From: Pseudomonadota bacterium | GTDB taxonomy: Bacteria > Babelota > Babeliae > Babelales > CAIQNR01 | Assembly: GCA_027487215.1 (NCBI GenBank) | Contig: JAIYDZ010000006.1 | Span: 209,191-273,190 of the forward strand | Direction: 5' to 3' | DNA: 64,000 bases | Part shown: one piece after another, positions 7,831 to 45,973 of the stretch | Numbering within the stretch: position 1 is the first letter of the stretch | Layout: the number at the start of each line of letters is the position of its first letter | Notes under the pieces: model-generated | What the model saw: the letters and a program-made list of their open reading frames with translations, nothing else | Databases searched by the model: none | What the model was told of the DNA's origin: nothing | Position numbers and translations under genes: made by a program

Positions 7831-8315
7831 AACAGTTGATACGCAACAAGAACGTAAACACATCCACATGCCAGCAATGCTGCATAACAGTCATCAAGCA
7901 GTACCCCTGTTGCTCCAGGTAGCGTTTCAAACCAGGAAACCCCGCACCATTTAGTGATATCAAAAAAACGATAAACCAGAAACCCAATCAGTGCAGTTTT
8001 TAAAGTAAAAGGCACCACCACAAAGATAAGTGCACAGCTGACCACTTCATCAAGAATAACTTCTGAAGGATCTTTTGATTTAAAATATGGTAAAGCCGCA
8101 TCAATAACAAACCAAGAACCTAGTGTTGCGCCCACTACCACCACGGGATACCACCAATAAGAAGTACCAAAAAACGCACACAGCAAGCCTACTGCAGCTC
8201 CCCATGTGCCCGGTGCGGGCAAATATCCAAGGGGTCCCACCGTTGAAAGAAATACACAACATTTTGAAGTATTACTCTTCCATGACATATTCATACACCA
8301 TAATGCACACCCCAA
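7827..8315 (-). CDS. pgpA: Phosphatidylglycerophosphatase A (true start may be ATG 8288/8294)
   Basis: GYLPAPGTWG, KDPSEVILDE, RFFDITK, GVLLDD. Confidence 0.9.
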   Translation of the reverse strand: MGCALWCMNMSWKSNTSKCCVFLSTVGPLGYLPAPGTWGAAVGLLCAFFGTSYWWYPVVVVGATLGSWFVIDAALPYFKSKDPSEVILDEVVSCALIFVVVPFTLKTALIGFLVYRFFDITKWCGVSWFETLPGATGVLLDDCYAALLACGCVYVLVAYQLL

Positions 8316-14694: not shown

Positions 14695-17600
14695 TTACTT
14701 TACCGGTGTAATAAAATTTTTAATAACTTGGTCAGAAATCTTGAAATTACCAGACTCTTTAAATTTAAACATTTCATCTCTGAAAGTTTTAATAAAATCT
14801 AAAGAGTCGCCCAAATCACTTAAATACTTATTAAAACTAGCAAAAATTGGTGGCCCCTCAGCTGTTCGTGTTGCCATATCAACATACGTACCAAATTGCC
14901 TTACAGTAATAGTATCTAAATATTGACTGACTGCTTTTTGAATTTCATCAGCAGTAGGATTAACAACTTTTTGTTTATCTAATGCTAAACCTACGAGTTC
15001 TGTTTCAAACCTTTCACGAATCAATCTAGTCTGAAATTGTTTTAATGAATCGATATTATTAACATCTACTACTACATTTTTTAATCCATACTGTTTAGTC
15101 AACGTTTCAACCTCAGCCTTTAAAGCTTCCTTTACTTTAACCGGATCTTTAGCTTTTGATGCTGCTTCTTGCGCTGCTTTTTGAGCTGTAAGTTCTGCAG
15201 CTTCTTTTTCGGCTTTCTGAGCAGCTTGTTTAACTGCAACATCTGCAGCTTCTTTTTCTTTAACTAAAAACTGAGTAATCTCATCAGGGCTACTTAAGCT
15301 GTTTAATTGTTGTATTCGAGTTACATCATTTTTTAGTTGACTGACAAGTTCTGCATTATGTCTTTGTAAAGCTGCAGCTGTACTTGAATTTTTGGCAAGA
15401 TTGGTACTAATGTCAGTATCAAGTTTCGTAAGAACTTGAGGGTCTAAAACATCTATTTTAAGTTCTGGAGTTAGTCCTTGTACTTTTTCTAAATGCTCTT
15501 GAACTCTTTGTAGTAAATTTTTTATCTCTTGATGATCTTTAAGAGCACCTGTAACTACTATTAAATTTTGAGAGGGCCTGCCACTAATAACAAGCGGTTG
15601 GGGAAGCTTAGCAGCAGCCTGTTTTGCTGCCGTCTCTGCTAGTTCTTTTGCCACTTTATCAGCAGCTTCTTGTGCCGCTTTTTTTGCAGCCAGATCAGCG
15701 AAAAACTTATTGATGTCTGGTGATTGGTGTGCTTCGCGTAAAATATAAAGATCATCTTTTAATCCACTTAATGTGGTAAATATTTGCTTCTGCTGTTGAG
15801 GATTTATTCTAAGTAGTTCTAATTCTTTGGTCATAATAGTATCTAATGCTTCAAATGCACTCGGCTCTAAAGGATTAATTTTTGCTGCAAGCAAACTACT
15901 TTTTTGAGCTGCTGAATGACCTACAGTTTTAATAAATGCTGCCTGCATTTTACCTATTTTACCGTCAATAGTTTCTAACACAGAAACCATGCCTGGATGA
16001 TCTGTTGCTAAAGTACCAGGAACTACAACCACATTTTGTAATTGTCTTACTTTTCCCTCTACAGTCATAATCTTAATTGGTTGTGGAAGCTTTGCAGCCT
16101 CTTGAGCTGCCTTTGTTTGGGCTGCTTCTGCTGTTTCTTTTGCAAGTTTTTGTGCCACTTCTTGTTCAGCTTTTAAAACCGCTCCAATATCCTCAGCTTT
16201 ATTTAAAATTTGTAAGCGTTCTACATCTTTTTGTAGTTGTGGCATCAAATCATCCACAACTTTTTTAATTGAAGAATCTTTTATAAGAGCAGTCTCTGTT
16301 GATAATTTACTTAATGCTTTTGGATCAAGAGGATCAATTTTGAATCCGCTACCATCAAATACTTTACGACCATTGCCAGCCATAATTTGATCAACGGTAT
16401 TTCTTCCTACCAAACTATCTCGGTTAACCCATCCTTCAATTGTCTTTAATTTTGTATTAACCTCACCCAATGTTTTAATAATTTCTTGATGGTCTTTGAT
16501 AACAGCTCCATTAGAAGGAAGTATGTTGTCATAGGTTGTTCCTTTAAGTGTCAATGACTGTTGTGCTGGTTTAACTGAAGCCTCTACTGGTTTTACTGTA
16601 ACAACTTCAATTGGAGCCGGTTTTGCAGCTTGTTCTGGAACGTTTGCAGGTTTTACCGTTGGAACTTCAGAAGTAACAGGTTTTGCGGATGTAGAATTAT
16701 TTACTGATTGTTTTGGTGTTTGAGCTGGTTGTTTTTCTAATGAAGTCGAGGTTTGACCATTATTAACTGGTTCTACTCCTGGACGTTTAACATCTGGAGT
16801 TTCTGCTTTTTTGCGAACAGTTGGTTGTTTTGAATAATTTTTTTTGTAATTTGCAAGTTGTTTTTCATGCAAAACTTTCATTTTTGGATTAAATTCTTCA
16901 AGCATAAATTTAACATCGGATTCTTCAATTCCCATTTTTTCAAAAAGCTTTGAATTACCTCTTAAATAATTTTCATCAAACCCAAAGTCAATTCCTTCTT
17001 TAGTAGATCTTCTTTCAAACGAAAATACAGCATTATACTTGACAATATCTTCTTCTAATTCTTTAATTAAACCCTCCATTAAATCTTTATAAAATTTTTC
17101 TGTTGATGCTTTATTTATAAATTCTTCAACTGTTTGAGCAATAGTTGCCTGACCTGGAGTATTTGACAATTGCGTTTTAATCAACTTTTGAATCTTAACA
17201 TTAAGACCTAGGTCAAAAAGTTGCTCCGAAAGAGGTTTACCATTAAGAACAATTGTGGGGAGACTCTGAGGATCAGCACCATATTGAAGTAAAAGATTTC
17301 GTATACTTCTAACTTTAATATCTTGTAGCTTTTCCGTTAGTTGTGTAAATTTAGCAGCATCTTCTCCAGATAAACCGTTAATTAAATTCTTTCCAGAATT
17401 ATCCTTGAATAAGTTTTTAAACTTGTCTTTTACTCTTGTAAAAAAACTTTTTGATGACTCATTTTTTGGCACACCTGGGTCATATATAGAACCATCACTT
17501 GCTGCATAGATAGATTTTTGAGGTCTAAGCTTATTAAGTTCTTCTGAAAAAGGTCCTAGAATAGGAGGTTCTTTAGAACCTCCTATTGGCACCTCTTGTC

Positions 17601-20600
17601 TACCTCCAAAATGTACTTTTCTGTCAGTAGTAGTAGGGGTACCGCTGCTTTTAACGGGTTCAAATCGAGTGCTTTGATCATTGATTCTTACTACGTTATT
17701 ATTAGGTTGTTCACTCATAGTTTTAAATCCTGCAACTTGATCTTTTCCAACTTGTCCTAATTTTTTTGGAGGAATTTTCATATCGTTCCGAGAAACACCT
17801 CCAAATCCTTCGGCACGTCCTAGTCGAATGTCATCTCGATCAGGAAGTTTTACTGGCGGTTGAGCAGGACGATCTGTTACAGGCTTAGGTTCAGGTGATT
17901 GAGGTAGAACTTCGGTCAATGGGTTACCAACTGATTCAAATTCTCCTGTAGAGTTTTTTAAAGCCTGTGTCACAGTTTGATTGCTTTTGTTAACATCTGT
18001 AACAGTAGTAGTAGAAAATCTTTCTTCTAAAGCCTTTGATGTATTGTAATTTTGATCTCCTAATGTAAATCTCTGTACTGCTTCTCTATACGTTGGGTCA
18101 GTATTTTCATTTATAATTTCCTTAAAGCTTTTGTGCTTAACAATGGTAGCTTTTTGCTCAGCTATACCAGAAAGAGATTCTCTTAAAGCTTTCGAGTCCT
18201 TGTTCGTTGAGGTTTTAATGTGTTGTACAATGGTATTTAAAGCTTCATCGGTTTGAACCTGTGCTGTTTGTAATTCTTTAACGAGCTTAGCTGGAGGATT
18301 ATCCTCTAAAAATGTTTGTAATAAAGTTTGATTATTATTTCCAATTCCTTTACCGCTTAAAGCCTCCTCTAATTCTTTCCATTTTTTATTTTTAAGATGA
18401 GCTTTTATTTCACCACTGAAGTTAAGTCCTTCAGGGATTTTCTTAAAATGTTCTCTCAAGATATCATCAGGTAATTCTAATTTTGATGCTGCTTTTATTG
18501 ACGATTGATCTACACCCAATACTTTCATTTGCTTAACAAAATCATCTTCTTTCAATAAACTTCTAACTTTTTGATATAAATCGTCTTCAAAAAACTGTGC
18601 CTTTAATACTTCAAAGTCAATGCTTTTTAATTGAGTTACAAAATCCCCAATTCTGTCTAACCCCGCTAATTCTCGAACCTGTTCGACCAATAAGCCGAAC
18701 TTTTCCTGACCAACCTCTGCGGTTGACTGATTTAATCTTCTAAGAGCTGAAGAATCAAGAGGATTAGTTGCTGAAGTTGCAGCTTCCACAGAGCTTAGTG
18801 TCCTATCTTTTTCAAAGAAAATAGTTCTATCTTCAGGAAGTGCTTTTTTACTAGATATCTGAGGACTTTTTCTCAGCTCTTGATTATAGGCAAAAGCATG
18901 AGGATTATCTGCCTTAGTAGGTACCACACCTGTTACAGACAAAGGTTCTTCCATAACAACTTTAATACTGCCGCCCTCTGTCTTGGTAAGAATAAGGTCT
19001 GCATTATTTTGAAAAACTTTAACGTCAGAGTTTTGAGCAATCTGTGCTGATGACTTTTTGGGATTAATTTTTTGCTTGAATCTTTCAAACCACGATAAAG
19101 GTTTTTCTTGAGGTAAGGATTTTTTTTGACCCACAGGTTCGCTTGATGCAATTTTGCTTGGTGCAGGGTTTGATTGATTAATAGCACTATTAACTTTTTG
19201 ATACTCTGTAAATAAAGCGTTTAAATCTTCTGGAAGATTATGTTTTTTTATAAAAGATGCAATGTCGTCCTTAGTTTTTAAAATACTTTCACCTTTTTCA
19301 TTGGTTCCCAGTTGCCTAAAGAAATCTAATGCATCATCAACTTCTTTTTGATAACGAGTCAGCGCACTAAAATTCTCTCCCTGTTGATCAATTGTTTCGA
19401 AAAACTCAGAAAGTTTTCCGGTAAACCCTTCTTTCTTTGCCAAATCAACCAACTTCTGATCAATAAGGGCATTTCTAAGATTTTCAATTGAATCTACATT
19501 CTTAATAAAATCATCTGCTGTTTGTAAGTCATAAATCTTCTTAAGATCATCTGAAACCTGATATTTCGTAATAAGTTCTTCAAATTTAGTTTTACGCAGT
19601 GTATCTATCTGTTTTTGTAAATTACGCAATTTCATTTCCTGTCCAGCAGTAGGAATTTCATCTAAGAAAGCAAGAGGTGGTTTCTCTCCGATTTTTATTG
19701 GATCGGTTTGCGTATTTGGTCCCTCTTTGGGTGCAGTAGTAGTTTCAACTTTTTTTCCACCACTGGTTGGCCCGTCAATGTTATTTCCTACAGAAGGATT
19801 ATCAAGTGTTGTTTGATTAGGTAGACTATTGGAAGGTTTTACAGATTTTTCTGCTAATAAAGTCGGCGACGCTGGACTATTATCAACTGGTTTTACTGAT
19901 GTTTTTGATTCGACAAAACTTTTTTGTAGTGCTTCATACGCTCCATAGTCTTTTTCATTAAACATTTTCTGGAAAGCTAGTAACTCCTCCTCAGGAATTA
20001 CCTCTTTATTAACTTTACGTGCTTTTAATTTTTTAAGTGCTTTTTTTACGTCAGGATTTTTGATTTGTTCTGGTTTAATATCAAGAGAGCGCACTTTTTC
20101 ACCAAAAGCTTTTTCCAGAGTATCATCAAATTCATCTAAAGGATCCAAAGCAGATGGTTTAGAATTTTTTGGTAAACTTTTTGCCCTTTTTGATTGCTCT
20201 AATAGGTTTTTTGCTCGGCTATGAATTTCTTCAGGTGTTAAAGGGGTATCCTTAATAATGCTACTATTTTCGCGCGCCACAAGATCTGATCTTAATTTAT
20301 CATAAAGAGCTCGATCTTGAGGATCAATTGTATCGGCTAAAGCGTTTTGATAAGCTGCTCTTCTACCAGCTTGCTCAGCAATTTCCTTTGCGAATAGTTC
20401 AACAGCCTCTTCTACTACTTCTTCACCTACCTGCTCTATGATTTCTTTTGATCCTTTAGAAACTCCTGCTTCAGCTGTATTTTGTGTTGCTTCTCGTAAA
20501 AGTTGTTGAGCTCTTTGTGCGATTTCAGAATTAATTCGCATCGCTGATTTTTTAGTAAGACTCTCACTAGTTTCTTGAGTTATTAGTGCTGAGGCTTTGA

Positions 20601-23600
20601 CAATACTATCAGCTACTTCCTTTGCAGATCTTTCTGCAAATTCCTCTGCAAGTTTTTTAGTTGCATATGCCGTCGTAGCCTCAAGACCTTCTTTTACAAT
20701 AACTTTGCTTCCTGCACGTAAAAAAGCCTCAACCCCTTCCCGTGCCATAAATTCACCAATATTTTCAAGAGCCTCTAGGGCAACTCCTGAACCGGGTGCT
20801 AAAAAGTTCATTGGGTCTAAAAGCATGTTAACAATCAAAGAAGTTACAAAAAGAGCAGTGTTCTTAGCAGCATCTTCTGCAAAAGATTCTGCTGAATCTT
20901 TAACCATGTTTCCCACTCGAGAAAAAAAGTCTTTGGCGCTTTTACTTTCAGATGCCGTAACAGCAGCAGCTCCATACATACTTACATACATTTCAAGCGG
21001 ATTCATTAAAGGAACAGGTGAGAAACGTTGAACGTCTTCAGGTAATACCTCTTTAATAGCACTGAGCGCTATAGAATTTTGCATTGCACCGGGACCTGTA
21101 AAAAGTGAAATTCCTGGCATATAAGTAGAAAGTGGATTAGGCATTCCTAGTGTTAATGCCTGGACCATAAACCCTGAATTGTTTCCCCACCATTCTTTAA
21201 AACTTCCAGCATGCCAAAATGTTTTTCTAAGTGGAGCAGTAAGACCTGTATAAATACTCATAAAAGTCTTTTCAAACCAGTTTTTTTCAGGCTCAGGAAT
21301 ATCAAACTTAGAACGCAATGTCGCAATATTACCGCGTACTATCTGAATAACATTATCCCACGACTGATCGTACACTTTATCTATCGATTTTTTGTCTTCT
21401 TTAAAACTTTGTTTAAAGTCTTTTAGGATGCGTGACGTATCTCTTTTTATATTATTAATACGGATTTTATAGTCTAACTCAATCCCCTTAACATCTCGAT
21501 CAACAAGAAGCTCAAGTTCTTTAAGTTGACTATTAAATAAATCTTTTGAAAGTTTTGCACGCCGTGCAACAAGATCAGCTTTACTCTTTTCAAACTGTTT
21601 TTTGCGCTCAGTAATTTTTGACTTCATTTCATTTTCAAGACGAATTCGTTCATTCTTAAGATCTTGTTTTTCTTGCTCAGCTACGGTGGTAAATTGCTGA
21701 TCTACTTTGGTAGCAATCTCTTTTTGTTTTTCCTTAACTTCACGGACAAAACTTTTACCATCAGGACCTTTAGCAATTTCAGCCTGGTTCTTGAGGTATT
21801 CTGCTCGCTCATCAGATTTTGTTTTGTAGAATTTTGCATACGCTTGATTAATAGCCGCTTCAAGATCTTTTTTAAGTTTATTTATCTTATTGTTTTTATA
21901 AGCAACGTAATCTTTTTCTGCTAAAAAAGTTCGCTGTTTGCCTTCATCGTCAACAAAACTCGTTTGACCATATAATTGTAATTCAAGCTTTGATCGACGA
22001 TGTTCATACTCCATTAACTGAACAGTTTCTTCAAACCCTCTTCTTACAATATCTACTTCTTTTTCAATAACCTGCTGTGCACGTTCTTTGTCATAGTTGT
22101 AATCAAGTTTGTTTTCTATCTCTTTAAGCTTCTTTGTTGAATAATCTCTTCGCAAATCTTGATAAATTTGACGCTCAATTTCTTCTTTTGCTTGGACGCG
22201 TTTAATAAGATTGTCACCTTGAGTTGCTTCCATAGTTAAAAGAACATCTCTAATTTTATTTTGTTCTTCAATCAAACGTTTATATTTTTCAATTTTAGTA
22301 CTCAGTTCAAGAGCATCTACAGAATTTGAACGAGCATTTTTACTTTTTAAAAAGGCAATAAGCTCTGGTTTTTTATTTCTAGGTGCATCCAAGTAGCCTC
22401 GTTCTTGAGCATAATCTAGTGCAGTTTTATTTGCCCTATCAGTTTCATTAACAGGAATGCCTTTTGAAAGAAGATATTCAACTAAAGGTAAAAAACCATA
22501 CGCTGTTGCATAATGAAGTATCGAGCGATTATTATCATGGTAATTTCTAATATCAGCAGCACCGATTGTTTTTTTAATCTGCTCGAGCAGCGTTCCATCC
22601 CAAGTTTTTGCAATTCTGACTAATTGCTTGAACTGTTCCTGCTGAATCTTATTTAAAGAAGGAGAAGGATAATTCATTTGCCGATCGAAAGCTGCTTTTT
22701 TTAATCTTGCTTTTTCTTCTTTTATTTTATTTGAAGCTGCTTTCTTTTGAGACTTTTCTGCATTTATTAATGGAGTATAAGCGGCTCGGTCTTTATAAAG
22801 TTGTGTTTTTAAATTTGCAATATCTTTTTCAACTTTTTTTTCAAGATCTACTTTCTTTGTCTTTACAATTCCTTTTACTCGAACAATTCCTTCATTAAGA
22901 ACACGGTCAGCATCCTTGATTGCTTGTTCGTAAGCTACTTTTGCAGCCTTCTCTTTATTGTTATAAGAAACTTTTGCTGCATAAACATCATCCTCGTATT
23001 TTTTGTCCGCTTGATTATCTGCAACGTTATACTGCTTTTTTGCATTATTAATGCCTTGCTTATATTGAGTAGAGGTAATTTTTTTCTGATCGAACTGTTC
23101 TTGTAATTGTTGCACCTGATCTTGATAGGCGATTTTATTATTATAATCAGAATTTGTTTTTTGGAGCTTAAATTGTGATAACTGAGCGTTACGCTGATCT
23201 AAAGCTTCTTGAAGTGTGGTTTGATAAGTTTTTTTAAGAGAACCGATTTTTGCACGATACGTTTCTTCAATATCTTTTCTTGTAGTTTCATACTCAGCTT
23301 GTGCTGCTGCTACATCGCTATGATATTTGGCCTCAGCATCTACTCTTTTTTGAGTATAGGCTTTTTCAAAAGCTTCTTTTTGACCTACTGCACTTGACCA
23401 AATGGCACGAACAGCCTGATCAGCTTCTTCTTCAATTTCACCCTGACTTTTATAGTCAAACTCCTTAAAAGTGTCCATATTTTGATTAAGACGTTGGGCG
23501 CCTTCCTCAAACTTCTTATCAAAATACTCTGCATGCTCAGCTTCCAGCTTGTCTATTTGCTTTTGAGCGTTCAAAAGAGCATTCTTACTTTCAAGGACTA

Positions 23601-23703
23601 CCGCTGACTGATTTGCCCATAACGATACACCAGGCAAACCGATAGAAAAAATAAATCCAATTAAAAGTAAGTGGACTCTTTTTTTTCCCATTGCCAACCT
23701 CAT
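14695..23703 (-). CDS. Giant (3002-aa) secreted protein: coiled coil, ankyrin pair, hydrophobic central block, C-terminal repeats
   Basis: Uninterrupted 9-kb ORF; signal peptide (start probably 23691, GAGGT RBS); ankyrins SILHYATAYGFLPLVEYLLSKG / KTALDYA at about 22390-22545. Confidence 0.85.
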   Translation of the reverse strand: MRLAMGKKRVHLLLIGFIFSIGLPGVSLWANQSAVVLESKNALLNAQKQIDKLEAEHAEYFDKKFEEGAQRLNQNMDTFKEFDYKSQGEIEEEADQAVRAIWSSAVGQKEAFEKAYTQKRVDAEAKYHSDVAAAQAEYETTRKDIEETYRAKIGSLKKTYQTTLQEALDQRNAQLSQFKLQKTNSDYNNKIAYQDQVQQLQEQFDQKKITSTQYKQGINNAKKQYNVADNQADKKYEDDVYAAKVSYNNKEKAAKVAYEQAIKDADRVLNEGIVRVKGIVKTKKVDLEKKVEKDIANLKTQLYKDRAAYTPLINAEKSQKKAASNKIKEEKARLKKAAFDRQMNYPSPSLNKIQQEQFKQLVRIAKTWDGTLLEQIKKTIGAADIRNYHDNNRSILHYATAYGFLPLVEYLLSKGIPVNETDRANKTALDYAQERGYLDAPRNKKPELIAFLKSKNARSNSVDALELSTKIEKYKRLIEEQNKIRDVLLTMEATQGDNLIKRVQAKEEIERQIYQDLRRDYSTKKLKEIENKLDYNYDKERAQQVIEKEVDIVRRGFEETVQLMEYEHRRSKLELQLYGQTSFVDDEGKQRTFLAEKDYVAYKNNKINKLKKDLEAAINQAYAKFYKTKSDERAEYLKNQAEIAKGPDGKSFVREVKEKQKEIATKVDQQFTTVAEQEKQDLKNERIRLENEMKSKITERKKQFEKSKADLVARRAKLSKDLFNSQLKELELLVDRDVKGIELDYKIRINNIKRDTSRILKDFKQSFKEDKKSIDKVYDQSWDNVIQIVRGNIATLRSKFDIPEPEKNWFEKTFMSIYTGLTAPLRKTFWHAGSFKEWWGNNSGFMVQALTLGMPNPLSTYMPGISLFTGPGAMQNSIALSAIKEVLPEDVQRFSPVPLMNPLEMYVSMYGAAAVTASESKSAKDFFSRVGNMVKDSAESFAEDAAKNTALFVTSLIVNMLLDPMNFLAPGSGVALEALENIGEFMAREGVEAFLRAGSKVIVKEGLEATTAYATKKLAEEFAERSAKEVADSIVKASALITQETSESLTKKSAMRINSEIAQRAQQLLREATQNTAEAGVSKGSKEIIEQVGEEVVEEAVELFAKEIAEQAGRRAAYQNALADTIDPQDRALYDKLRSDLVARENSSIIKDTPLTPEEIHSRAKNLLEQSKRAKSLPKNSKPSALDPLDEFDDTLEKAFGEKVRSLDIKPEQIKNPDVKKALKKLKARKVNKEVIPEEELLAFQKMFNEKDYGAYEALQKSFVESKTSVKPVDNSPASPTLLAEKSVKPSNSLPNQTTLDNPSVGNNIDGPTSGGKKVETTTAPKEGPNTQTDPIKIGEKPPLAFLDEIPTAGQEMKLRNLQKQIDTLRKTKFEELITKYQVSDDLKKIYDLQTADDFIKNVDSIENLRNALIDQKLVDLAKKEGFTGKLSEFFETIDQQGENFSALTRYQKEVDDALDFFRQLGTNEKGESILKTKDDIASFIKKHNLPEDLNALFTEYQKVNSAINQSNPAPSKIASSEPVGQKKSLPQEKPLSWFERFKQKINPKKSSAQIAQNSDVKVFQNNADLILTKTEGGSIKVVMEEPLSVTGVVPTKADNPHAFAYNQELRKSPQISSKKALPEDRTIFFEKDRTLSSVEAATSATNPLDSSALRRLNQSTAEVGQEKFGLLVEQVRELAGLDRIGDFVTQLKSIDFEVLKAQFFEDDLYQKVRSLLKEDDFVKQMKVLGVDQSSIKAASKLELPDDILREHFKKIPEGLNFSGEIKAHLKNKKWKELEEALSGKGIGNNNQTLLQTFLEDNPPAKLVKELQTAQVQTDEALNTIVQHIKTSTNKDSKALRESLSGIAEQKATIVKHKSFKEIINENTDPTYREAVQRFTLGDQNYNTSKALEERFSTTTVTDVNKSNQTVTQALKNSTGEFESVGNPLTEVLPQSPEPKPVTDRPAQPPVKLPDRDDIRLGRAEGFGGVSRNDMKIPPKKLGQVGKDQVAGFKTMSEQPNNNVVRINDQSTRFEPVKSSGTPTTTDRKVHFGGRQEVPIGGSKEPPILGPFSEELNKLRPQKSIYAASDGSIYDPGVPKNESSKSFFTRVKDKFKNLFKDNSGKNLINGLSGEDAAKFTQLTEKLQDIKVRSIRNLLLQYGADPQSLPTIVLNGKPLSEQLFDLGLNVKIQKLIKTQLSNTPGQATIAQTVEEFINKASTEKFYKDLMEGLIKELEEDIVKYNAVFSFERRSTKEGIDFGFDENYLRGNSKLFEKMGIEESDVKFMLEEFNPKMKVLHEKQLANYKKNYSKQPTVRKKAETPDVKRPGVEPVNNGQTSTSLEKQPAQTPKQSVNNSTSAKPVTSEVPTVKPANVPEQAAKPAPIEVVTVKPVEASVKPAQQSLTLKGTTYDNILPSNGAVIKDHQEIIKTLGEVNTKLKTIEGWVNRDSLVGRNTVDQIMAGNGRKVFDGSGFKIDPLDPKALSKLSTETALIKDSSIKKVVDDLMPQLQKDVERLQILNKAEDIGAVLKAEQEVAQKLAKETAEAAQTKAAQEAAKLPQPIKIMTVEGKVRQLQNVVVVPGTLATDHPGMVSVLETIDGKIGKMQAAFIKTVGHSAAQKSSLLAAKINPLEPSAFEALDTIMTKELELLRINPQQQKQIFTTLSGLKDDLYILREAHQSPDINKFFADLAAKKAAQEAADKVAKELAETAAKQAAAKLPQPLVISGRPSQNLIVVTGALKDHQEIKNLLQRVQEHLEKVQGLTPELKIDVLDPQVLTKLDTDISTNLAKNSSTAAALQRHNAELVSQLKNDVTRIQQLNSLSSPDEITQFLVKEKEAADVAVKQAAQKAEKEAAELTAQKAAQEAASKAKDPVKVKEALKAEVETLTKQYGLKNVVVDVNNIDSLKQFQTRLIRERFETELVGLALDKQKVVNPTADEIQKAVSQYLDTITVRQFGTYVDMATRTAEGPPIFASFNKYLSDLGDSLDFIKTFRDEMFKFKESGNFKISDQVIKNFITPVK

Positions 23704-35301: not shown

Positions 35302-37051
35302 CTTTATTAAAGATCGCGCACCAATTTTAAACGTAATTGGTGAACATGTTGTACTTAAAAAAGCTGGCCTTTATTGGAAAGGCCCGTGTCCTTTTCACGA
35401 TGAAAAAACTGCTTCATTTACTGTCAGTCCGTTAAAAGAAATCTTTTATTGTTTTGGATGTCATACTGGCGGAGATGTCATTACCTTTGTTGCAAACATT
35501 GAACATTGCACTCCCATTGAAGCAGCAAAACATCTTGCTGATCGTTATAACATCGCAATCCCTCAAACGGTATCTCGAGAAGTTTCAGAACAAAGCATTG
35601 ATGACAAAAAACGCTATTTTAATCTCTGTGAGTTTTTTGCACGCTGGGCACACAAAGAATTAGAACGTTATCCCTCAATGACCAGTTATTTGCTCAAGCG
35701 TAGGTTTAACCAAGAAAGCATTAATCAATTTTTAATTGGGTACTTTCCAGGCGATGAACGAGCAATGAAAGAACTTATTAAAGAAGCAAACAAACATTCT
35801 TTTATTGCAAAAGACCTCCTTGACGCTCATCTAATTGAACAAGGAAAAACAAATCTCTATTCCCCTTTTGAAGACCGGATCATGTTTCCTATCCGTGACC
35901 ACCTTGGTCGCTTTTGTGGATTTGGCGGTAGAGTCGTTAAAAAAGAGGATGAGCGTTCAAAATATTACAACTCACGTGAAAATAATTTTTTTCAAAAAGG
36001 TAGTATTCTTTTTGGTCTTGATCTGGCCAAAAAATCAATCCAAAAGGCAGGGTATGCTTTTTTAGTAGAAGGCTATACTGATTGCATTGCGATGGCACAA
36101 CACGGACTGCACAATACGGTTGCAACCTTGGGTACTGCCTGCACTCTTGAACACTTAAAACTCCTTTCCTATCATGCCCATACAGTTTATTTGGTGTATG
36201 ACGGAGACGCTGCCGGGCAAAAAGCGATGCTTCGTCTTGCTGAACTCTGTTGGCAGGTAAACCTTGAGCTTAAAACTATCTTTTTACCCGAAAGTCAGGA
36301 TCCAGCCTCTTTTCTAGAAACAGGGGGTGACATGAGTGCTATGGTCCCTCATGCACGAGATATCCTTGATTTCTTTCTTTCTAACTTAGGGCAAGAATTT
36401 GCCGCTCAAAACCTCCAACAAAAATTAGAAAATATTAAAACCTTCCTTGAGGTCCTTAAGCGATTTGACGACCCAATCAAGCAAAGCATCTTTTTACAAA
36501 AAGCTTCAGAGACTTTTGGACTACCTCTTGAGGTTCTTAAAAAACAGCTTGAACGAACTGATCGTGTGACTCAACCTTCGCCCAAAAAAGAGGAAATTAG
36601 CCCGTCAGAACCACACTTATTTGACGGCGTAACTGCTGTAGAAAAAAAATTAGTGTGTGCTATACTAAACAATACTCTGCTCCTACAAAAGGACGAGGTA
36701 GCTCGACTGATCGAATATATGCCCTCAGGGCTCCAGGCGATCATAAAGAAGCTCCAAAATGCAGAGAGTGTGCATGGGCAAAAGGTATTCACGCATTTCT
36801 TTGAGACTCTTGAATATCCTGAAAAACAGTTAGTAAATAGACTGCTTTTAAGTCAGGATGAACACAGCGAACTGGAAGATGTTGATCAGCTTTTGCTGAT
36901 GGTGGAAAAAAAGTATTGGAAAATGATTGTGAACGGCACAAAACAAAAAATAGCACAAGCACAACAAGATAATGATGCGCACAAAGTTAATGATCTGGTA
37001 GTTTCATTCCTGAAATTAAAAGACAAGCTGATACGTAGGGGACTTATATAA
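35273..37051 (+). CDS. dnaG: DNA primase
   Basis: [16 protein letters not shown] zinc finger, RIMFPI, GFGGR, KYYNS, VEGYTD, YDGDAAG, DP. Confidence 0.96.
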
Positions 37052-39399
37052 TGGTAATTGGAAAAATTTTGGACACACTTCTTGGCAGGAAGCCCTCTGC
37101 CGCAAAAAAGAAAAAGAAACAAGTAAAAGTAAGTTCAAAAAAAGTGACTAAAAAAAAGACACTTAAAAAAACTGTTACAAAAAAAAGTACTCCTAAAAAA
37201 TCGGTAAAGGCTGTTGCAAAAAAAATTGCAACAAACAAAGCCCCCAGCCGTTCAGCAGCAAAAACTGCTCCACGCACTAAAGCAGTTCCTCTTTCTCGCC
37301 CTGCAAAAACAGTTGCTACCCAGATTGGTAAAAAAACTGTAAAACAGGCTCCTCAAAAAAATATTGCTGCAAAACCAACACCTAAAGCTGTTGTTAAAAC
37401 CGCAGTGGCTAAAACTTCTGTCATAGCAAAAAAAGCTCCAGAAAAAGCTGCTCCTTCTATACAGCCTAAGGTTGTTGCTTTGGTTGCAGCACCAACTGCT
37501 CAAAGAGCTACTACCACTAGTTCTAAAAAAATTGCTCCAAAAAAAGCCACTACCAGCAAAGCCACAGCAAGCGGTAAAGAATCAAAAAGCATCGATCTTA
37601 AAAATGAAAGTATCGAAGCGCTCATTGAAAAAGGCAAAGAGCATGGAATGCTCAGTTACGAAGAAATGATCGCTTTCAATGAGGCCAACCATCTTTCAGA
37701 AAAAGAAGCAAACGACCTTCTCAAGCTTCTTGAAAAAGAACACATTGAACTTGTGATGGAAGATGAGATTGATTCGGCTTCTGTTGACCTTGCTTCTACT
37801 GAAAAAGAGCCTGGAGTTTCATCGAATAAATTCCAAGAACAATTATTACTCCTTGATGAAACCAATGAACAAGATGAAGATGAAAACGAAGAACAGGACG
37901 AAGAAGAAGAACGTCCCGTTGCGGAAGCAACCAACATCACTGACGGGGTAAAATGTTATCTTCGTGATATTGGTAAGATTCCACTTCTTAACAAAACAAC
38001 AGAAAAAGCTATTGCTGACAAGATTGCAACAAGTAAGCATCTGTCTATTGAAGCAATTGCAAAGTTCCCGTTTGTTCATAAAGAGTTTGTAATACTTGGT
38101 GATCGTGTTGCAAAAAACACAATGCCTCTTAAAGATCTTATTCAATTTGCTGAATTTGACGAAGAAAACATTCCGAAAATCGCAGAAGAAAAAGATGCGC
38201 TTCTTGCAACGATTAATACTATTGCAAACTTGATCAAAAACGAAGAAAAAATTTACGCAAGTTATCGCGAACAACTCTCTTCTTCTGCAAAAAAGAAAGA
38301 GATGCTTGATAAGGTTAAAGAGAATAAAGAAGAAATCTCAAAAACTATTCAATCTATACGTATAACAAACAAACTTATTCGCAAAATTGGTAAGAAGATA
38401 GAAAAGTTTCTTCTTAAAGTACGTGAACGCGAAGTTGCTATTAAAGAAGCTCAAGTACAGGTCACTGCCCTTTCAAAAGCAAAAAATCCTTCTGAAATCA
38501 TTCGTAAGGAAATTGAAGAACTTGATGTGACCATCCGTGCGTCGCAAAAAGCTATTAAAAAAGTTGAAGGCGAAGCTGGATTACCGCTTGCTGAAATTAG
38601 AAAACAGTACGATCAGTTAATGCGTAGCTTACGCAATGACAAACGAGCAAAGGATGAACTTGCAAAAGCAAACCTTCGCCTTGTTGTTAACATTGCCAAA
38701 AAATACGTCAACCGCGGCCTTCACTTTCTTGATTTAATTCAAGAAGGAAACATCGGTTTGATGAAAGCTGTAGAAAAATTTGAATTTGAACGTGGTTATA
38801 AGTTCTCAACCTATGCAACCTGGTGGATCCGTCAAGCAATCACCCGTGCAATTGCTGACCAATCACGAACCATTCGTGTACCGGTTCACATGGTTGAAAC
38901 ATTAAACAAGATCAACAAGATTAAACGTGTATTTGTCCAACAAAATGGACGCGAACCATCATACACAGAACTTGCTAAAGAATTAAATCTTGACGAAAAA
39001 AAGATAAAAAATATTATCAAAATCTCTAAAGAACCGATTTCACTTGAAACACCGGTTGGTGATAGTGAAGATGCGTTCATTAAAGATTTCATTGAAAACG
39101 AAAAAGACTGCTCTCCTGCTGACTCAGTAGCAAACGCAGACCTTAAACAACGAGTTCGTGAAATCTTAAAAACGTTGACTCCTCGTGAAGAGAAAGTTCT
39201 TAAGATGCGTTTTGGTATCGATGTGGCCTCTGAACACACTCTTGAAGAAGTGGGTAAAGACTTCTCTGTGACGCGTGAGCGTATTCGTCAGATTGAAGTG
39301 AAAGCATTGCGTAAACTACGCCATCCTTCAAGAAGTAAGAAGCTACAATCGTTTTTTGAAAAAGAATTTGATAGTCTTCCTGGAGAGGCTGGCGAATAG
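37051..39399 (+). CDS. rpoD: Primary sigma factor sigma70 with long Lys/Ala/Thr-rich N-terminal extension
   Basis: [75 protein letters not shown]; follows dnaG. Confidence 0.97.
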
Positions 39400-40844: not shown

Positions 40845-41273
40845 ATGAAAGCATTTGGTATCAAAAAATTGATTGTTAGTTTTTTGGCAGCAGCATTAAT
40901 TCTGAGCGCATTTTCTCTGTATGCTCCTGCAACCGAGCGTAGCAAAAAAAACAAAAAAGATGATGAAGAGACTGCGATAATAATCCACAACATCTCCTCT
41001 CTTTTTGGAGGGTTTGCACAGTTAGCAAAAGATCCTGAAGATGGTGATAATGTCAGAGAATCAATAGGCCATATGGTAGGATCTATGTTATCGCTAGTAG
41101 CTGGGGTCCCTAAACGCGGCACCTCTGATTATGATAAAGCTTTAGATGATGCTCTTAACGCTGAACGCTTAGAAGATCAGTTCACACGCTTTTTTAATTC
41201 AGAAGAAGGAAAAGAACTTCTCTATAAGATGAGAGAACAGTTCTCTACGCCTTGTCATAGACTCCACACATAA
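40845..41273 (+). CDS. Secreted hypothetical protein
   Basis: AAAGGA RBS; signal peptide. Confidence 0.7.
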   Translation: MKAFGIKKLIVSFLAAALILSAFSLYAPATERSKKNKKDDEETAIIIHNISSLFGGFAQLAKDPEDGDNVRESIGHMVGSMLSLVAGVPKRGTSDYDKALDDALNAERLEDQFTRFFNSEEGKELLYKMREQFSTPCHRLHT

Positions 41274-41804: not shown

Positions 41805-43172
41805 TTACAATGGTAAAAGCTGATCATCAAGAACAATCATTTGATCTCGCTCAGGACCAACCGAAACAAAGCTGATAGGCGCCCCGGTCAAAAGTTCTAT
41901 TTTTTTGACAAATGCACGCGCTGCCTCTGGAAGATCAGAAAGTGATCGTGCGTTACGCGTTGAAGTTTTCCATCCAGGCATTGTGATATAGCGAGGTTCA
42001 ATCTTTTTTGCATGATTAATCATTGGTGGCAAATAATCATAATTTTTCTTATCCAGAACATAATCATAACAGATTTTAATTTCATCGAGTGTATCAAGCT
42101 CATCAAGCTTACTAATCGCTAATGAATCAATACCATTAATCAGAATAGCTTCACGAATAAGTACTAGATCAACCCATCCATAGCGCATATCTTCAATTTC
42201 TTCGCAGTATCCACTGTGAGCTTTTTTAAGTTTATCAAGCACCTTTTTATCTTTAATTTCTGCAGGCATTGGGCCTTTACCAATAAGCGTATTATATGAT
42301 TGCACAATACCTAACACATGGCCTACATTGCGAGGACCAACTCCAGCACCAGTAATAATTCCTGACGTGGTAGTACTTGAAGAACTTACATAAGGGTAGC
42401 AACCCATTGAAATATCAAGAAATGCTCCCTGGCACCCTTCAAAAATAACTGCTTTACCCTGAAGAATCAATTTATTGAGTTCTATCTCTAAATCATGCTT
42501 TACATAAGGTCGAATGCGATTAGCATATTCGCTATATTCTTTATAAACTTCTTCAAATACAAAAGGTTTTTCTTCAAAAATTTTTGTAAGTAACTGATTA
42601 GCAAAATCAACCGAATCGCGAAGAACTTCTTTAAACCGTACAGGGTCAATCAAATCTGCAACACGAATTCCAATACGAAGTCGCTTATCAGCTGCAGCTG
42701 CACCAAGACCTTTACGAGAACCTTCATCGGTACCGTTACGATACCAACGAGCAATAAGTTCATCTAATTTTTTGTGATACGGCATTATCACCTGAGCACG
42801 AGATGATATCCATAACCGACCCTCAATAGATTTATTTTTTGATTTGAGTAACTCAATCTCTTTAAATAAAATCTCAGGATCAATTTCCATGCCAGCAGTT
42901 AAATAACATTGAGTATTTTTTCTAAGTACGCCTGATGGAAGAATCATAAGATTGAAACCGTCACCAGCACGACGAATAATATTATTACCCCTTCCCTCAC
43001 TCAAGCTCTGAGAACGAACAACAATATGAGCACGTTCTGCTAGGTAATCGGTATATTTACCTACCCCACCAGAATTCCAGCCCAAAGAAGTAATAACTAA
43101 GCTGCGTGGTATCCACGCTTGCGCTGAAAACATCAAACAACATAAAACAAGTAATACCTTAAGCTTCTTCAT
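41805..43172 (-). CDS. Adenylosuccinate synthetase (PurA)-like protein with signal peptide and degenerate active site
   Basis: Full PurA scaffold (LPSGVL, IMPYH, GIRVADL, FEGCQG, YPYVSSS, GWVD, SKLDELD, MPGW, VSVGP.R); CAGGAG RBS; signal peptide MKKLKVLLVLCCLMFSAQA. Confidence 0.85.
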   Translation of the reverse strand: MKKLKVLLVLCCLMFSAQAWIPRSLVITSLGWNSGGVGKYTDYLAERAHIVVRSQSLSEGRGNNIIRRAGDGFNLMILPSGVLRKNTQCYLTAGMEIDPEILFKEIELLKSKNKSIEGRLWISSRAQVIMPYHKKLDELIARWYRNGTDEGSRKGLGAAAADKRLRIGIRVADLIDPVRFKEVLRDSVDFANQLLTKIFEEKPFVFEEVYKEYSEYANRIRPYVKHDLEIELNKLILQGKAVIFEGCQGAFLDISMGCYPYVSSSSTTTSGIITGAGVGPRNVGHVLGIVQSYNTLIGKGPMPAEIKDKKVLDKLKKAHSGYCEEIEDMRYGWVDLVLIREAILINGIDSLAISKLDELDTLDEIKICYDYVLDKKNYDYLPPMINHAKKIEPRYITMPGWKTSTRNARSLSDLPEAARAFVKKIELLTGAPISFVSVGPERDQMIVLDDQLLPL

Positions 43173-43209
43173 TCTCTCTCCTGCCAATCGGTTATCACCA
43201 CTCGTGGAC

Positions 43210-43238
43210 ATTGTGCCCCAAAAGAAAAAAACTGTAAA
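43210..43238 (-). promoter_or_regulatory. Candidate sigma70 promoter of the PurA-like gene
   Basis: Minus strand TTTACA-N17-CACAAT. Confidence 0.45.
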
Positions 43239-43287
43239 TAAAAAATGGTGAACCTTGTCATGAACAATGATTCACCATTTTTTATTT
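43236..43287. terminator. Bidirectional terminator (17-bp perfect inverted repeat) after the SPFH gene
   Basis: AAATAAAAAATGGTGAA / TTCACCATTTTTTATTT. Confidence 0.75.
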
Positions 43288-45082: not shown

Positions 45083-45973
45083 TTATTGTCGTAAGAGGCT
45101 TATTATCTCTTTTCTTATCACTGAATCAGTAATATCACGAGCTACATCATCCGCAGTTTGTCCTTTTTTATCTGCACGATCAACCTCAGCACCATTCTCA
45201 AGAAGAAGTTTTACCATTTCAATGTTCCCATTACTAACTGCATAAAAAAGAGCTGTTTTCCCATTACTATCTTGCACGTTAACCAAAACTTTCACGGAGC
45301 CAGTCACATCTACGCTTGTCATTAAATAAGGAGAGTCTCCTTGATTTGAATAAACGGTTTTTGCATGATCTAATAACACTGAAAGTGTTTCAAAATCATT
45401 CAATTCAGCAGCTTTATGCAATGGTGTATTTTCATCTTCATCAAAAACGTTTATATCAAATTCTGGCTTTTCATTTAAAAATCTTTTCACCCCTGCGCTA
45501 TCACCCTTTGCAACAAAAAGCATTAAGGTAGTAAGTGAAAGATTATCGTAAGAACCCTCTTTCCCTCCTTCTAGCTCAAGTTCATCTACAAGTTCATAAA
45601 TCTCTTTTTCCCCTGCATTTGCATAAATAAGTTCTTTTTTTGCCAATTGACTTGCTGAACTCGCTCTGCGAGCAGGTACAGGAGGAGGCAGCTGTTGATA
45701 AAGTTGGCCCGACCCTTGGATTGGAGAAATACGCACAGGCGATGCTGATGAGCCTTTTTTGTCAGGACTTCTTGGAGGCAATGCTGGTGCCCCTTCACCG
45801 TGATCATAGCTCTGGTTCATATAAATTGGTTCTTTGCTAGCACGAATTCGTGGTGGTAATGCTGGCGCAGATTGACCAGCTGGTGATAGATTTCCGTAAA
45901 TAGGCTCTTCTGCCGGTTTAAGCTCTGTAACTATTAAAAATAAAAATAACGTATATAAAAATAATTTCTTCAT
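45083..45973 (-). CDS. Secreted ankyrin-repeat protein with Tyr-motif/Pro-rich N-terminal region
   Basis: Signal peptide; ankyrins NTPLHKAA, GKTALFYAVSNGNIEMVKLLLENGAEVD, GQTADDVA; GGGAGG RBS. Confidence 0.9.
   Translation of the reverse strand: MKKLFLYTLFLFLIVTELKPAEEPIYGNLSPAGQSAPALPPRIRASKEPIYMNQSYDHGEGAPALPPRSPDKKGSSASPVRISPIQGSGQLYQQLPPPVPARRASSASQLAKKELIYANAGEKEIYELVDELELEGGKEGSYDNLSLTTLMLFVAKGDSAGVKRFLNEKPEFDINVFDEDENTPLHKAAELNDFETLSVLLDHAKTVYSNQGDSPYLMTSVDVTGSVKVLVNVQDSNGKTALFYAVSNGNIEMVKLLLENGAEVDRADKKGQTADDVARDITDSVIRKEIISLLRQ

Follow-up and report, generated by a model that had tools for sequence, protein, structure and literature searches.

Here, we describe a PurA-like protein (P0001) of a bacterium that most likely belongs to the Babeliales (Dependentiae), encoded by an uninterrupted, full-length PurA-fold open reading frame on the minus strand of the window, which is the whole 64,000-nucleotide stretch of DNA that was analyzed. 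The explanation that we prefer, with middling confidence and on the basis of sequence comparison, is that this protein descends from PurA but is catalytically dead, exported by the Sec pathway, and probably homodimeric, and that it would serve as a guanine-nucleotide binder at the meeting point of parasite and host. As an enzyme homolog that appears to have lost its catalytic residues under purifying selection, it has the hallmarks of a pseudoenzyme. All 13 sampled genomes of its family, and 1 of 138 genomes from elsewhere in the phylum, were found to encode an ortholog. In the 13 family genomes the reading frame is uninterrupted, the corC and SPFH-NfeD neighbors are conserved, and the closest pair (G008 and G016) gave a dN/dS of 0.056 at a dS of 0.53. 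A decaying pseudogene was rejected on the basis of this distribution and dN/dS, in agreement with the sequence-only reading of this DNA, which had argued for selection rather than decay.

Two ATG codons might open the frame, an upstream one (41805..43211, 468 amino acids) and that of MKKLKV, which we adopt here (Table 1). All 13 family genomes have a Shine-Dalgarno sequence ahead of the MKK start (AGGAG in ten; GGAG, AGGA, or GAGG in three), bearing out the earlier claim that the gene has its own ribosome-binding site, and in-frame starts downstream of it lack such a sequence, save one TTG with GGAG in G099. A start at Met14, without a Shine-Dalgarno sequence in front, was rejected, and the concern that translation might begin downstream of the signal peptide was resolved in favor of the MKK start; the signal-peptide segment is thus predicted to be translated, with the true start upstream of it. 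The hairpin proposed to insulate the gene from the upstream unit was likewise substantiated, as it folds with -25.1 kcal/mol (z -7.45; 0 of 200 shuffles fold equally well) and is followed by a U-run. The proposed promoter TTTACA-N17-CACAAT is present, but its significance was not upheld, since the region holds 8 promoter-like sites against 8.0 +/- 2.9 expected from shuffles. A terminator-like site at 41886-41867 falls within the PurA-like frame and was disregarded, and no convincing terminator was found on the minus strand downstream of the stop codon. A search among sequencing runs for RNA sequencing data on the gene found none; DNA of its source is listed in freshwater metagenome runs, which says nothing about expression.

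Table 1. Features of the PurA-like gene and its surroundings (window coordinates; residues in E. coli PurA numbering unless stated otherwise)
Feature	Coordinates	Strand	Evidence or remarks
PurA-like protein CDS (P0001)	41805..43172	-	455 aa + stop; PF00709, AlphaFold2 model, Foldseek
Signal peptide, P0001 residues 1-19 (MKKLKVLLVLCCLMFSAQA), predicted cleavage after AQA	43116..43172	-	Translation, rule-based heuristic, model
Shine-Dalgarno AGGAG, 5 nt 5' of the MKK ATG	43178..43182	-	Equivalent site in 13/13 family genomes
Promoter-like TTTACA-N17-CACAAT	43210..43238	-	9/12 matches; weak evidence only
Intrinsic terminator (hairpin and U-run) of the upstream SPFH/NfeD unit, insulating the PurA-like gene	43236..43287	-	Folding versus shuffles
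Degenerate P-loop GWNSGGVGK (10-18)	43056..43082	-	D13S, K16V; G15, G17, K18 kept
Switch region SQSLSEGRGNN (33-42)	42981..43013	-	N38G, H41N, T42N; one residue inserted
Remodeled IMP loop and dimer helix DEGSRKGLGAAAADKRLR	42675..42728	-	T128 deleted, T129S, R131K, Y137A; R143 kept
Replaced aspartate loop AHSGYCEEIEDMRYGW (294-309)	42174..42221	-	T300E, T301E, R303E, R304D, R305M; only R306, G308, W309 kept
Guanine-specificity motif SKLD (K331, D333), kept	42102..42113	-	Alignment to E. coli PurA
Guanine-pocket motif SVGP (S414, G416, P417), kept	41853..41864	-	Alignment to E. coli PurA

That the scaffold is a full-length PurA, as first read from the sequence, is well supported. Pfam PF00709 aligned to residues 27-446 over profile positions 2-416 of 416 (E 2.4e-115, 386 bits), and the AlphaFold2 model (pLDDT 89.8), in which the N-terminus forms a helix (residues 2-16) followed by a low-confidence linker, matched solved bacterial PurA structures in Foldseek with TM scores of 0.88-0.93 at 34-37% identity. 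We mapped its residues by HMMER alignment to the E. coli PurA chain 1cg1_A. Relative to this chain, G12N, D13S, K16V, N38G, H41N, T42N, T129S, and R131K are replaced and T128 is deleted, and the aspartate loop carries T300E, T301E, R303E, R304D, and R305M, whereas K18, R143, Q224, K331, D333, S414, G416, and P417 are kept. The IMP site combines the conservative changes T129S and T239S with retained Q224 and R143, the latter from the partner subunit, the missing T128, and R131K. We take Asp13 and His41 to be the catalytic base and acid of E. coli PurA; a literature search for mutants of these two residues found no open paper, and PDB titles among the Foldseek matches name the PurA mutants K16Q, R143L, and R303L. 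The alignment confirmed all substitutions that had been proposed for the P-loop, the His41 motif, the IMP loop, and the aspartate loop, with Asp13, His41, Thr129, Thr301, and Arg303 mapping to S, N, S, E, and E, respectively, as well as the retention of both guanine-specificity motifs.

With 43 orthologs aligned, a different picture emerged from that of a rebuilt active site with targeted substitutions, which the sequence-only reading had drawn. D13 is kept in 16 of 43 orthologs and N38 in 1, and T301, R303, and R305 occur together in none, compared with 36 of 36 canonical sequences in each case; H41, although lost in P0001, is kept in 36 orthologs. Measured by the frequency of the top residue, conservation is lowest at the catalytic and substrate sites (0.48, versus 0.60 for the rest of the protein), and the nucleotide pocket reaches 0.82, with D333 in 40 of 43, S414 and G416 in 43 of 43, and the P-loop K18 in 38 of 43 orthologs. 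Of the canonically invariant sites, 26 became variable and only 3 were fixed on a new residue. This pattern is one of relaxation, and at the level of sequence the active site is abandoned on a conserved scaffold (overall conservation 0.60, versus 0.66 in canonical PurA), with no redesigned pocket. One genus of the family (G101, G008, and G016) also lost K18, K331, and D333 under equally strong selection, and guanine binding is therefore not a function common to the whole clade.

These data bear on the possibility, to our minds a slim one, that P0001 remains catalytically active but with altered chemistry, as a GTP-dependent ligase or kinase that has retained the PurA scaffold and replaced IMP and aspartate with another acceptor or nucleophile. 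The PurA family is known to switch substrates, PurZ and DgsS being among the distant matches of P0001; some orthologs (e.g., P0011, P0015, P0023, and that of G135) keep D13, K16, and H41 together, and the motif GSRKGxGxAAADK, which holds two of the three newly fixed sites, is newly conserved in the P0001 subclade. However, P0001 itself lacks all three of these residues, no class of positions in the clade varies more than the catalytic and substrate sites, the few newly fixed sites stand against the many that turned variable, and the aspartate-loop region differs among orthologs in sequence and in length, with insertions of tens of residues.

P0001 is probably a homodimer, judging from structure modeling. 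Its homodimer prediction scored 0.92 against 0.37 for the best control, in a benchmark where 20 of 30 homodimers of known structure and 1 of 23 single chains attained the mark, and at least 96% of contacts agreed across three runs, with a partner pLDDT of at least 87; because PurA dimers have already been solved, this pass reflects likeness, not binding. The helix AAADKRLRIGIR at the dimer interface shows high conservation in the ortholog alignment, and interface positions are slightly better conserved than the rest of the protein (0.66 versus 0.60 among the 43 orthologs). It is conceivable, albeit unlikely, that this interface serves a partner in the protist host. P0001 would then be a secreted effector pseudo-subunit that pairs with host ADSS, where R143 might complete the IMP site (activation) or the dimer might be poisoned (dominant-negative), and host IMP flux would be rerouted. 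The conserved interface and the predicted dimer, the retention of R143 in P0001 and 29 of 43 orthologs, the many signal-peptide-bearing eukaryote-type proteins (ankyrin and WD40) encoded in the genome, and the precedent of a microsporidian hexokinase with a signal peptide, as described in the accessible part of PMC5113988, are consistent with such a role. Nevertheless, R143 is replaced by Gly in one subclade of 11 sequences, and the predicted interface is no nearer to the canonical consensus than the remainder of the protein (0.44 versus 0.43).

The N-terminus MKKLKVLLVLCCLMFSAQA comprises an n-region (MKKLK), the core VLLVLCCLMF (11-12 residues hydrophobic), and an AQA|W site, and thereby has the features expected of a Sec (SPase I) signal peptide, namely a positive n-region, a hydrophobic core of 7-15 residues, and small residues at -3 and -1. 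By a rule-based heuristic, 41 of 43 orthologs but 1 of 18 plain PurAs are signal-peptide-like; these calls reflect our own rule set together with conservation, not a standard predictor. A conserved Sec-type N-terminus is thus supported by the sequences and by the predicted translation of the segment; a Sec-type signal peptide had been claimed initially. A lipoprotein, which LVLCC in the core might suggest, was rejected, since Leu occupies position -1 and orthologs do not conserve the Cys. A literature search turned up no account of a PurA that bears a signal peptide or is a pseudoenzyme. The genome encodes two secretins, and about a third of its crude open reading frames (302 of 875) are signal-peptide-like. 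Other metabolic enzymes in the same genome also have an exported look, and signal-peptide-like N-termini occur on GuaA, GuaB, and Prs. The accessible parts of PMC4776705 and PMC6561590 report type II secretion in TM6/Dependentiae and state that 44% of the C. destructans coding sequences carry signal peptides.

PurA paralogs with intact motifs and signal-peptide-like N-termini occur in other Babeliales and in Chlamydiae (P0122, P0128, P0127, P0150, and others), and a literature search for such paralogs found no paper. All 18 relatives of this kind keep D13, K16, N38, H41, T129, R143, T301, R303, and R305, and carry, in front of the domain, about 22-30 additional N-terminal residues of hydrophobic character. 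Two Chlamydiae genomes (G151 and G152) encode a signal-peptide-like PurA alongside a plain cytoplasmic paralog. The divergent clade is monophyletic (SH-aLRT 100) in a tree from a "quick" IQ-TREE search that retained one very long row (P0030), and it is nested within a 99-supported group with the intact-motif, signal-peptide-like relatives. These data suggest, but do not prove, that an exported active PurA was the ancestor of the divergent clade. Because the sister group of this clade is a polytomy, we infer, rather than read from the tree, that the signal peptide came first and the decay later.

One of these relatives fits poorly with the idea that such proteins are fully exported. The only PurA of G147, with intact motifs, bears a similar N-terminus; its gene belongs to a purine operon, where it neighbors purB and purM, the products of which lack such an N-terminus. 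This raises the alternative, which we regard as improbable, of an uncleaved inner-membrane tether that holds the PurA-like domain on the cytoplasmic face, for example near nucleotide transporters, without export. In addition to the G147 case, the orthologs of G135 and G047 have a signal-anchor-like arrangement of an 18-residue hydrophobic stretch followed by a linker of 40-50 residues, and the large share of signal-peptide-like frames in the genome fits a tether as well. According to the positive-inside rule, though, a Lys-rich N-flank such as MKKLK directs an N-in, C-out orientation. Furthermore, the short core with its AQA site is typical of a cleaved signal peptide, and a signal-peptide-like version beside a plain paralog, as in G151 and G152, is as expected for a differently located copy.

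As an adenylosuccinate synthetase, the PurA-like protein is very unlikely to function, judging from its sequence and genomic context. Its scores lie below both NCBIfam PurA equivalog cut-offs (387.3 against 402 for NF002223 and 367 against 395.55 for TIGR00184), whereas plain PurA reached 606 bits and three intact-motif relatives (P0122, P0128, and P0150) reached 549-577; of six other divergent orthologs, five scored 266-401 and one (P0011) just attained the cut-off of 402 with 403.0. The PurA-like gene is the sole PurA homolog in its genome of about 1 Mb (G000, 94% complete), where the suggested check for canonical purA and purB elsewhere found no canonical PurA. PurB (PF00206) had no match in this genome or in any of 16 family genomes, compared with matches in 14 of 14 reference genomes used as a positive control. 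A BLAST search of the genome with eight purine enzymes of G147 found only the PurA-like gene and Prs; the IMP-producing pathway is absent. We therefore rejected an ordinary PurA on the grounds of residue losses, sub-cut-off scores, and the missing PurB. PurA domains have been linked to DarT-like ARTs in other taxa and operons (bioRxiv 10.1101/2024.07.30.605764, accessible part); P0001 matched none of the PADLOC families, and a role as a PurA-like component of a defense system was rejected on this basis. That P0001 is an ordinary synthetase or a functionless decaying relic can hardly be credited, since the public annotation of ortholog P0016 as "adenylosuccinate synthetase" and the marginal score of P0011 are outweighed by the replacement of D13, K16, N38, H41, T301, R303, and R305 in P0001 and by the scores and missing PurB given above, and a relic by the intact frames, low dN/dS, and near-canonical overall conservation. 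Considering this annotation and scores at the equivalog cut-offs, AMP synthesis may be wrongly credited to these uncultured parasites in metabolic reconstructions.

We thus return to an exported, catalytically dead nucleotide binder as the favored explanation. The protein would leave the cytoplasm for the periplasm, or might be carried further, by type II secretion or in vesicles, as far as the host side. In that location, going by the residues that it retains, it may bind a guanine nucleotide without turnover, although G12, D13, and K16 of the P-loop are changed, and the remodeled GSRKG loop perhaps accommodates a second phosphorylated ligand. Its role might lie in purine-nucleotide capture, sensing, or manipulation for a parasite that steals ATP and nucleotides, and its likely ancestor would be an exported intact-motif PurA of the kind still present in other Babeliales and Chlamydiae. 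It is tempting to speculate, at low probability, that protist-infecting Babeliales and environmental Chlamydiae raise the supply of importable nucleotides by exporting a purine and nitrogen enzyme toolkit, which would reach the host or a compartment that the host feeds. PurA, GuaA, GuaB, PRPP synthetase, and perhaps glutamine synthetase would belong to this toolkit, and the exported PurA of one Babeliales family would have become a dead regulatory subunit that pairs with host adenylosuccinate synthetase and retunes it. P0001 would illustrate how an enzyme fold can be preserved in nature for a non-catalytic use. It is predicted to be exported and dimer-capable and to retain its nucleotide pocket, and the lineage to which it belongs depends on nucleotides stolen from the host. 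Together with GuaA, GuaB, and Prs, the signal-peptide-like PurA paralogs point to unstudied host-parasite purine economics.

With canonical PurA (EC 6.3.4.4; PF00709, TIGR00184/NF002223), P0001 shares the fold, the guanine pocket (K331, D333, S414, G416, and P417), K18, R143, Q224, and the predicted dimer type, but differs in its signal peptide, in D13S, K16V, N38G, H41N, and the replaced aspartate loop, in sub-cut-off scores, and in lacking a PurB partner, an IMP supply, and constraint on active-site positions among orthologs. The intact-motif paralogs of Babeliales and Chlamydiae have in common with it the N-terminal extension, the 99-supported group on the Chlamydiae/Babeliales branch of the PurA tree, and the host lifestyle; in contrast to P0001, the catalytic and substrate residues are intact in all 18, and the three tested reached 549-577 bits. 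PurZ, PurZ0, and DgsS of the phage 2-aminoadenine pathway are likewise PurA-family members diverted from AMP synthesis; however, they are active, aspartate-using, cytoplasmic ligases. P0001 scored 81.6 bits against the cut-off of 300 for the PurZ-type model NF038379, and Foldseek related it to PurZ and DgsS with TM scores of 0.55-0.63. An ESM Atlas search with P0001 returned only generic PurA clusters. Pseudoenzymes, such as "prozyme" regulatory subunits, combine a conserved scaffold and interface with lost catalytic residues and purifying selection; unlike these, P0001 is predicted to be extracytoplasmic. The microsporidian secreted hexokinase, proposed in the accessible part of PMC5113988 to act on host metabolism, is comparable in being a normally cytosolic metabolic enzyme that carries a secretion signal in a nucleotide-stealing intracellular parasite; it belongs to another fold and kingdom and is thought to be active, whereas P0001 has lost its catalytic residues.

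The clade that contains P0001, the PurA-like protein encoded on the minus strand of the window, is rated here as a conserved PurA subfamily, predicted from sequence to be exported and non-catalytic. A full-length PurA scaffold, as claimed in the sequence-only reading, is borne out: PF00709 matched residues 27-446 over profile positions 2-416 of 416 (E 2.4e-115, 386 bits), and the AlphaFold2 model, made with a 37-row alignment (mean pLDDT 89.8, pTM 0.89), starts with a helix at residues 2-16, which a linker of low confidence joins to a complete PurA fold. Top Foldseek PDB matches were PurA structures only (TM 0.88-0.93; 34-37% identity to bacterial entries), and the matched entries include the PurA mutants K16Q, R143L, and R303L. 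Homodimer prediction with two copies of residues 22-455 in three runs gave a score of 0.92 (best control, 0.37), passing a mark that 20/30 solved homodimers and 1/23 single chains had attained. Contact agreement was at least 96% and pLDDT of the partner at least 87; the predicted interface comprises residues 157-170, including R166, the R143 equivalent, and 254-286. Since solved PurA dimers exist, the passing score suggests an interface that looks intact rather than proving dimerization. Such an interface might also serve a pseudo-subunit pairing with host ADSS; the runs concern self-pairing, and we regard pairing with the host protein as improbable.

Mapping by HMMER alignment of P0001 residues 25-450 to residues 4-427 of the E. 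coli PurA chain 1cg1_A, whose numbering is used here, confirmed every motif substitution listed earlier. The changes are G12N, D13S, E14G, and K16V in the P-loop; N38G, H41N, T42N, T129S, R131K, and T239S, with T128 deleted, elsewhere; and T300E, T301E, R303E, R304D, and R305M at positions 300-305. G15, G17, K18, D21, G40, R143, Q224, R306, K331, D333, S414, G416, and P417 are unchanged. We take Asp13 and His41 to be catalytic, and Thr301, Arg303, and Arg305 to be aspartate-binding, in E. coli PurA. P0001 scored under both NCBIfam PurA equivalog cut-offs (387.3 versus 402; 367 versus 395.55); that it works as an adenylosuccinate synthetase is very unlikely.

Three sets were aligned: 43 divergent P0001-type orthologues, 18 plain PurAs, and 18 intact-motif relatives that have an N-terminal extension. 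The canonical PurAs, 36 in all, retain without exception G12, D13, E14, G15, K16, G17, K18, N38, G40, H41, and T42 as well as T129, R143, T239, T301, R303, and R305. Losses in the divergent clade are not uniform: D13 is kept in 16/43, H41 in 36/43, K18 in 38/43, N38 in 1/43, R143 in 29/43, D333 in 40/43, and S414 and G416 in 43/43, and T301, R303, and R305 occur in one sequence each, never all together. In the divergent clade, 26 positions with 95% or higher conservation among canonical PurAs lack a majority residue, and a different residue has become conserved at only three positions (Q10G, T128G, Y137A). Mean top-residue frequency in this clade is 0.48 at catalytic/substrate positions (22), 0.82 in the guanine pocket (7), 0.66 at the predicted interface (72), and 0.60 over the rest (322). 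The former active site, described as rebuilt in the sequence-only reading, is by these alignments the least constrained region of an otherwise well-conserved protein and has been abandoned instead. Several groups of orthologues carry lineage-specific insertions of ~45-70 residues in or beside what was the aspartate loop (alignment A1, L012-L014). An enzyme with new chemistry, to which the three newly fixed positions might belong, seems unlikely beside the 26 that lost their majority residue.

The N-terminus of P0001 has a Lys-rich n-region, a hydrophobic core of 11-12 residues, and AQA directly before W, in agreement with the Sec-type signal peptide proposed earlier. By our own rule set, applied to N-termini, 41/43 divergent orthologues are signal-peptide-like, the remaining two appearing N-terminally truncated, compared with 11/18 intact-motif relatives and 1/18 plain PurAs; ahead of the conserved glycine of the P-loop stand a median of 36, 40, and 14 residues, respectively. 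In the closest orthologue pair, dN/dS is 0.61 over the first 22 codons versus 0.04 over the remainder, which matches the usual behavior of signal peptides, constrained in composition only. A hydrophobic N-terminus would also suit a membrane-tethered protein facing the cytoplasm, a reading that, set beside the AQA site, we consider quite improbable.

Start codon assignment relies on AGGAG 5 nt 5' of the MKK start, the proposed RBS. Equivalents precede the MKK/MKR start by 5-8 nt in 13/13 family genomes (AGGAG in 10; GGAG, AGGA, or GAGG in 3), and in these genomes no comparable site was found at in-frame ATG, GTG, or TTG codons downstream, except one TTG with GGAG in G099. The terminator hairpin, whose folding energy was matched in 0/200 shuffles, closes the upstream SPFH/NfeD genes (Pfam) and insulates the PurA-like gene, as had been claimed. 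The claimed promoter is present as a sequence match, but such sites occur at chance frequency (8 found, 8.0 +/- 2.9 expected in shuffled sequence).

The genome holding the window (994,875 bp, 7 contigs, 94.2% complete, 38% GC) has a single PF00709 match, the PurA-like gene; PurB (PF00206) had no match there and in 0/16 family genomes. BLASTP of its six-frame ORFs with eight purine proteins of a related genome as queries (purL, purM, purA, purB, purC/E, guaB, guaA, prs) recovered the PurA-like gene and prs only; no canonical purA or purB was found elsewhere. Among 151 phylum genomes sampled, PF00709 occurred in this genome and 12/12 others of the family, and in 1/138 of other families (G147). 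A protein database search added ~30 divergent-type cluster representatives at 70-42% identity; named homologues are 'Candidatus Babeliales bacterium'. In most relatives the gene is flanked by corC/CNNM and SPFH-NfeD (1.5-kb flanks: corC 9/12, SPFH 7/12). Nei-Gojobori dN/dS was 0.056 at dS 0.53 for the G008/G016 pair and 0.06-0.24 in four more distant pairs, where dS is saturated. The gene is old, vertically inherited, and under selection, in keeping with the selection argued for earlier, and P0001 is not a relic; an ordinary enzyme or a relic, taken jointly, is highly improbable. A convergent 142-aa ORF is not a conserved partner because a weak homologue occurs at only 1/12 related loci.

A quick IQ-TREE search on PurA (LG+C20; 79 rows, 452 columns) recovered the divergent sequences as a monophyletic clade (SH-aLRT 100) whose stem is long (0.72). 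The clade nests among Chlamydiae-type and signal-peptide-bearing PurAs, in a group with support of 99, where a polytomy stands in place of a single sister. At least 18 PurAs that combine intact motifs with N-terminal extensions came from a second database search, among them P0150, named Ca. Babeliales, and two from Chlamydiae/Simkaniaceae MAGs (G151, G152), each of which encodes a second, plain PurA with intact motifs and a short N-terminus (L097/L098 versus L099/L100). Equivalog bits are 549-577 for the intact-motif relatives P0122, P0128, and P0150, 606 for plain PurA, and 266-403 for six divergent orthologues. G147, the sole non-family genome with PurA in the phylum sample, encodes one with all canonical motifs and the N-terminus MKRMKIMSVVVCALVVSLSVGATS, in the order purL-purM-purA-purB-purC/E-guaB-guaA-prs. 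Its PurA, GuaB, GuaA, and Prs have a 22-31 residue hydrophobic, signal-peptide-like extension before the Pfam domain; PurM, PurB, and PurC/E of this cluster have none. The simplest history would be that PurA acquired an export signal first and that catalysis was lost later in one Babeliales family.

We propose, at about even odds, that Sec would export the PurA-like protein out of the cytoplasm, where it would, probably as a dimer, hold a guanine nucleotide but not turn it over, and serve to acquire or manipulate purines where parasite and host meet. Two counterpoints to this proposal are the strongest. The genus represented by G101, G008, and G016 additionally lacks K18, K331, and D333, yet has the lowest dN/dS; with these residues lost under strong selection, guanine binding is not the clade-wide function. 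The other is the operon-encoded, signal-peptide-bearing PurA of G147, apparently active as read from its motifs.

Coordinates of the PurA-like gene and of other features discussed (C, contig)
Feature	Location	Strand	Remarks
PurA-like gene, longest ORF	window 41805..43211	-	468 aa
PurA-like CDS (P0001), second ATG	window 41805..43172	-	455 aa; N-terminus MKKLKVLLVLCCLMFSAQA
Terminator hairpin 5' of PurA-like gene	window 43236-43287	-	-25.1 kcal/mol, z -7.45, then U-run
Promoter-like TTTACA-N17-CACAAT	window 43238-43210	-	sequence match
142-aa ORF	window 40845-41273	+	signal-peptide-like N-terminus; no Pfam match
Ankyrin-repeat protein	window 45083-45973	-	signal-peptide-like N-terminus MKKLFLYTLFLFLIV...; proline-rich repeats; two genes upstream of PurA-like gene; candidate secreted host-interaction protein
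Giant ORF	window 14695-23703	-	3002 aa; signal-peptide-like N-terminus
Putative RpoD (labelled by eye)	window 37051-39399	+	directly downstream of DnaG primase gene; ~200-250-residue N-terminal extension rich in Lys, Ala, Thr, Pro, resembling a histone-H1-like tail
ComF-like ORF	window 7174-7869	-	weak match
PRPP synthetase (P0228)	G000:C2:23699-24715 (L101/L103), outside window	+	signal-peptide-like N-terminus
Glutamine synthetase	G000:C5:95117-96607	-	signal-peptide-like start; AAGGAG before upstream start
PLP-dependent enzyme	G000:C3:153104-154228	+	signal-peptide-like N-terminus
Three tandem GT2 glycosyltransferases	G000:C4:194549-198348		signal-peptide-like N-termini
WD40-repeat protein	G000:C4:67457-68854	+	signal-peptide-like N-terminus
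C11 (clostripain-like) peptidase	G000:C7:72367-73647	+	signal-peptide-like N-terminus
Four tandem nucleotide-transporter (TLC/NTT) genes	G000:C4:56477-61695, outside window	-	fit energy/nucleotide parasitism
G147 PurA	G147:C41:4086-5420 (L016)	-	1.5-Mb Babeliales genome
G147 GuaB	G147:C41:8413-9918	+	
G147 GuaA	G147:C41:10085-11668	+	
G147 PRPP synthetase	G147:C41:12818-13864	-	

The PRPP synthetase of the genome under study (G000) begins with MKQISLILLFFSSILNA, its domain starting at residue 24. The distribution of this paralogue is patchy: a few genomes of other Babeliales families carry it at 57-66% identity, and none of the 12 other genomes of the family does; an N-terminal extension is present in 7/7 examined proteins of its type versus 1/9 ordinary Prs. 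Apart from its PRPP synthetase, G000 gave a single phosphoribosyltransferase-like match, the weak ComF-like ORF, so no obvious cytoplasmic PRPP consumer was seen there. Extracytoplasmic ATP- or GTP-dependent enzymes are sensible only with host nucleotides at hand; a site of action in a periplasm fed by the host, or on the host's own side, would suit this. The broader pattern of exported-looking purine enzymes is a more interesting lead than the PurA-like protein itself. In full-text literature searches, no paper describing a PurA that bears a signal peptide or is non-catalytic was found. By a crude test, 302/875 ORFs of G000 are signal-peptide-like at the N-terminus, and two secretins are encoded. 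One report describes TM6 genomes as lacking nucleotide biosynthesis and possessing ATP/ADP translocases and a type II secretion system (PMC4776705), and another, on Chromulinavorax destructans, finds that 44% of its CDS have a putative signal peptide and proposes secreted effectors (PMC6561590). Given these traits and the names of the homologues, we assign the source organism to Babeliales (Dependentiae). A published analogue of exported-looking metabolic enzymes is the microsporidian hexokinase with a signal peptide (PMC5113988).
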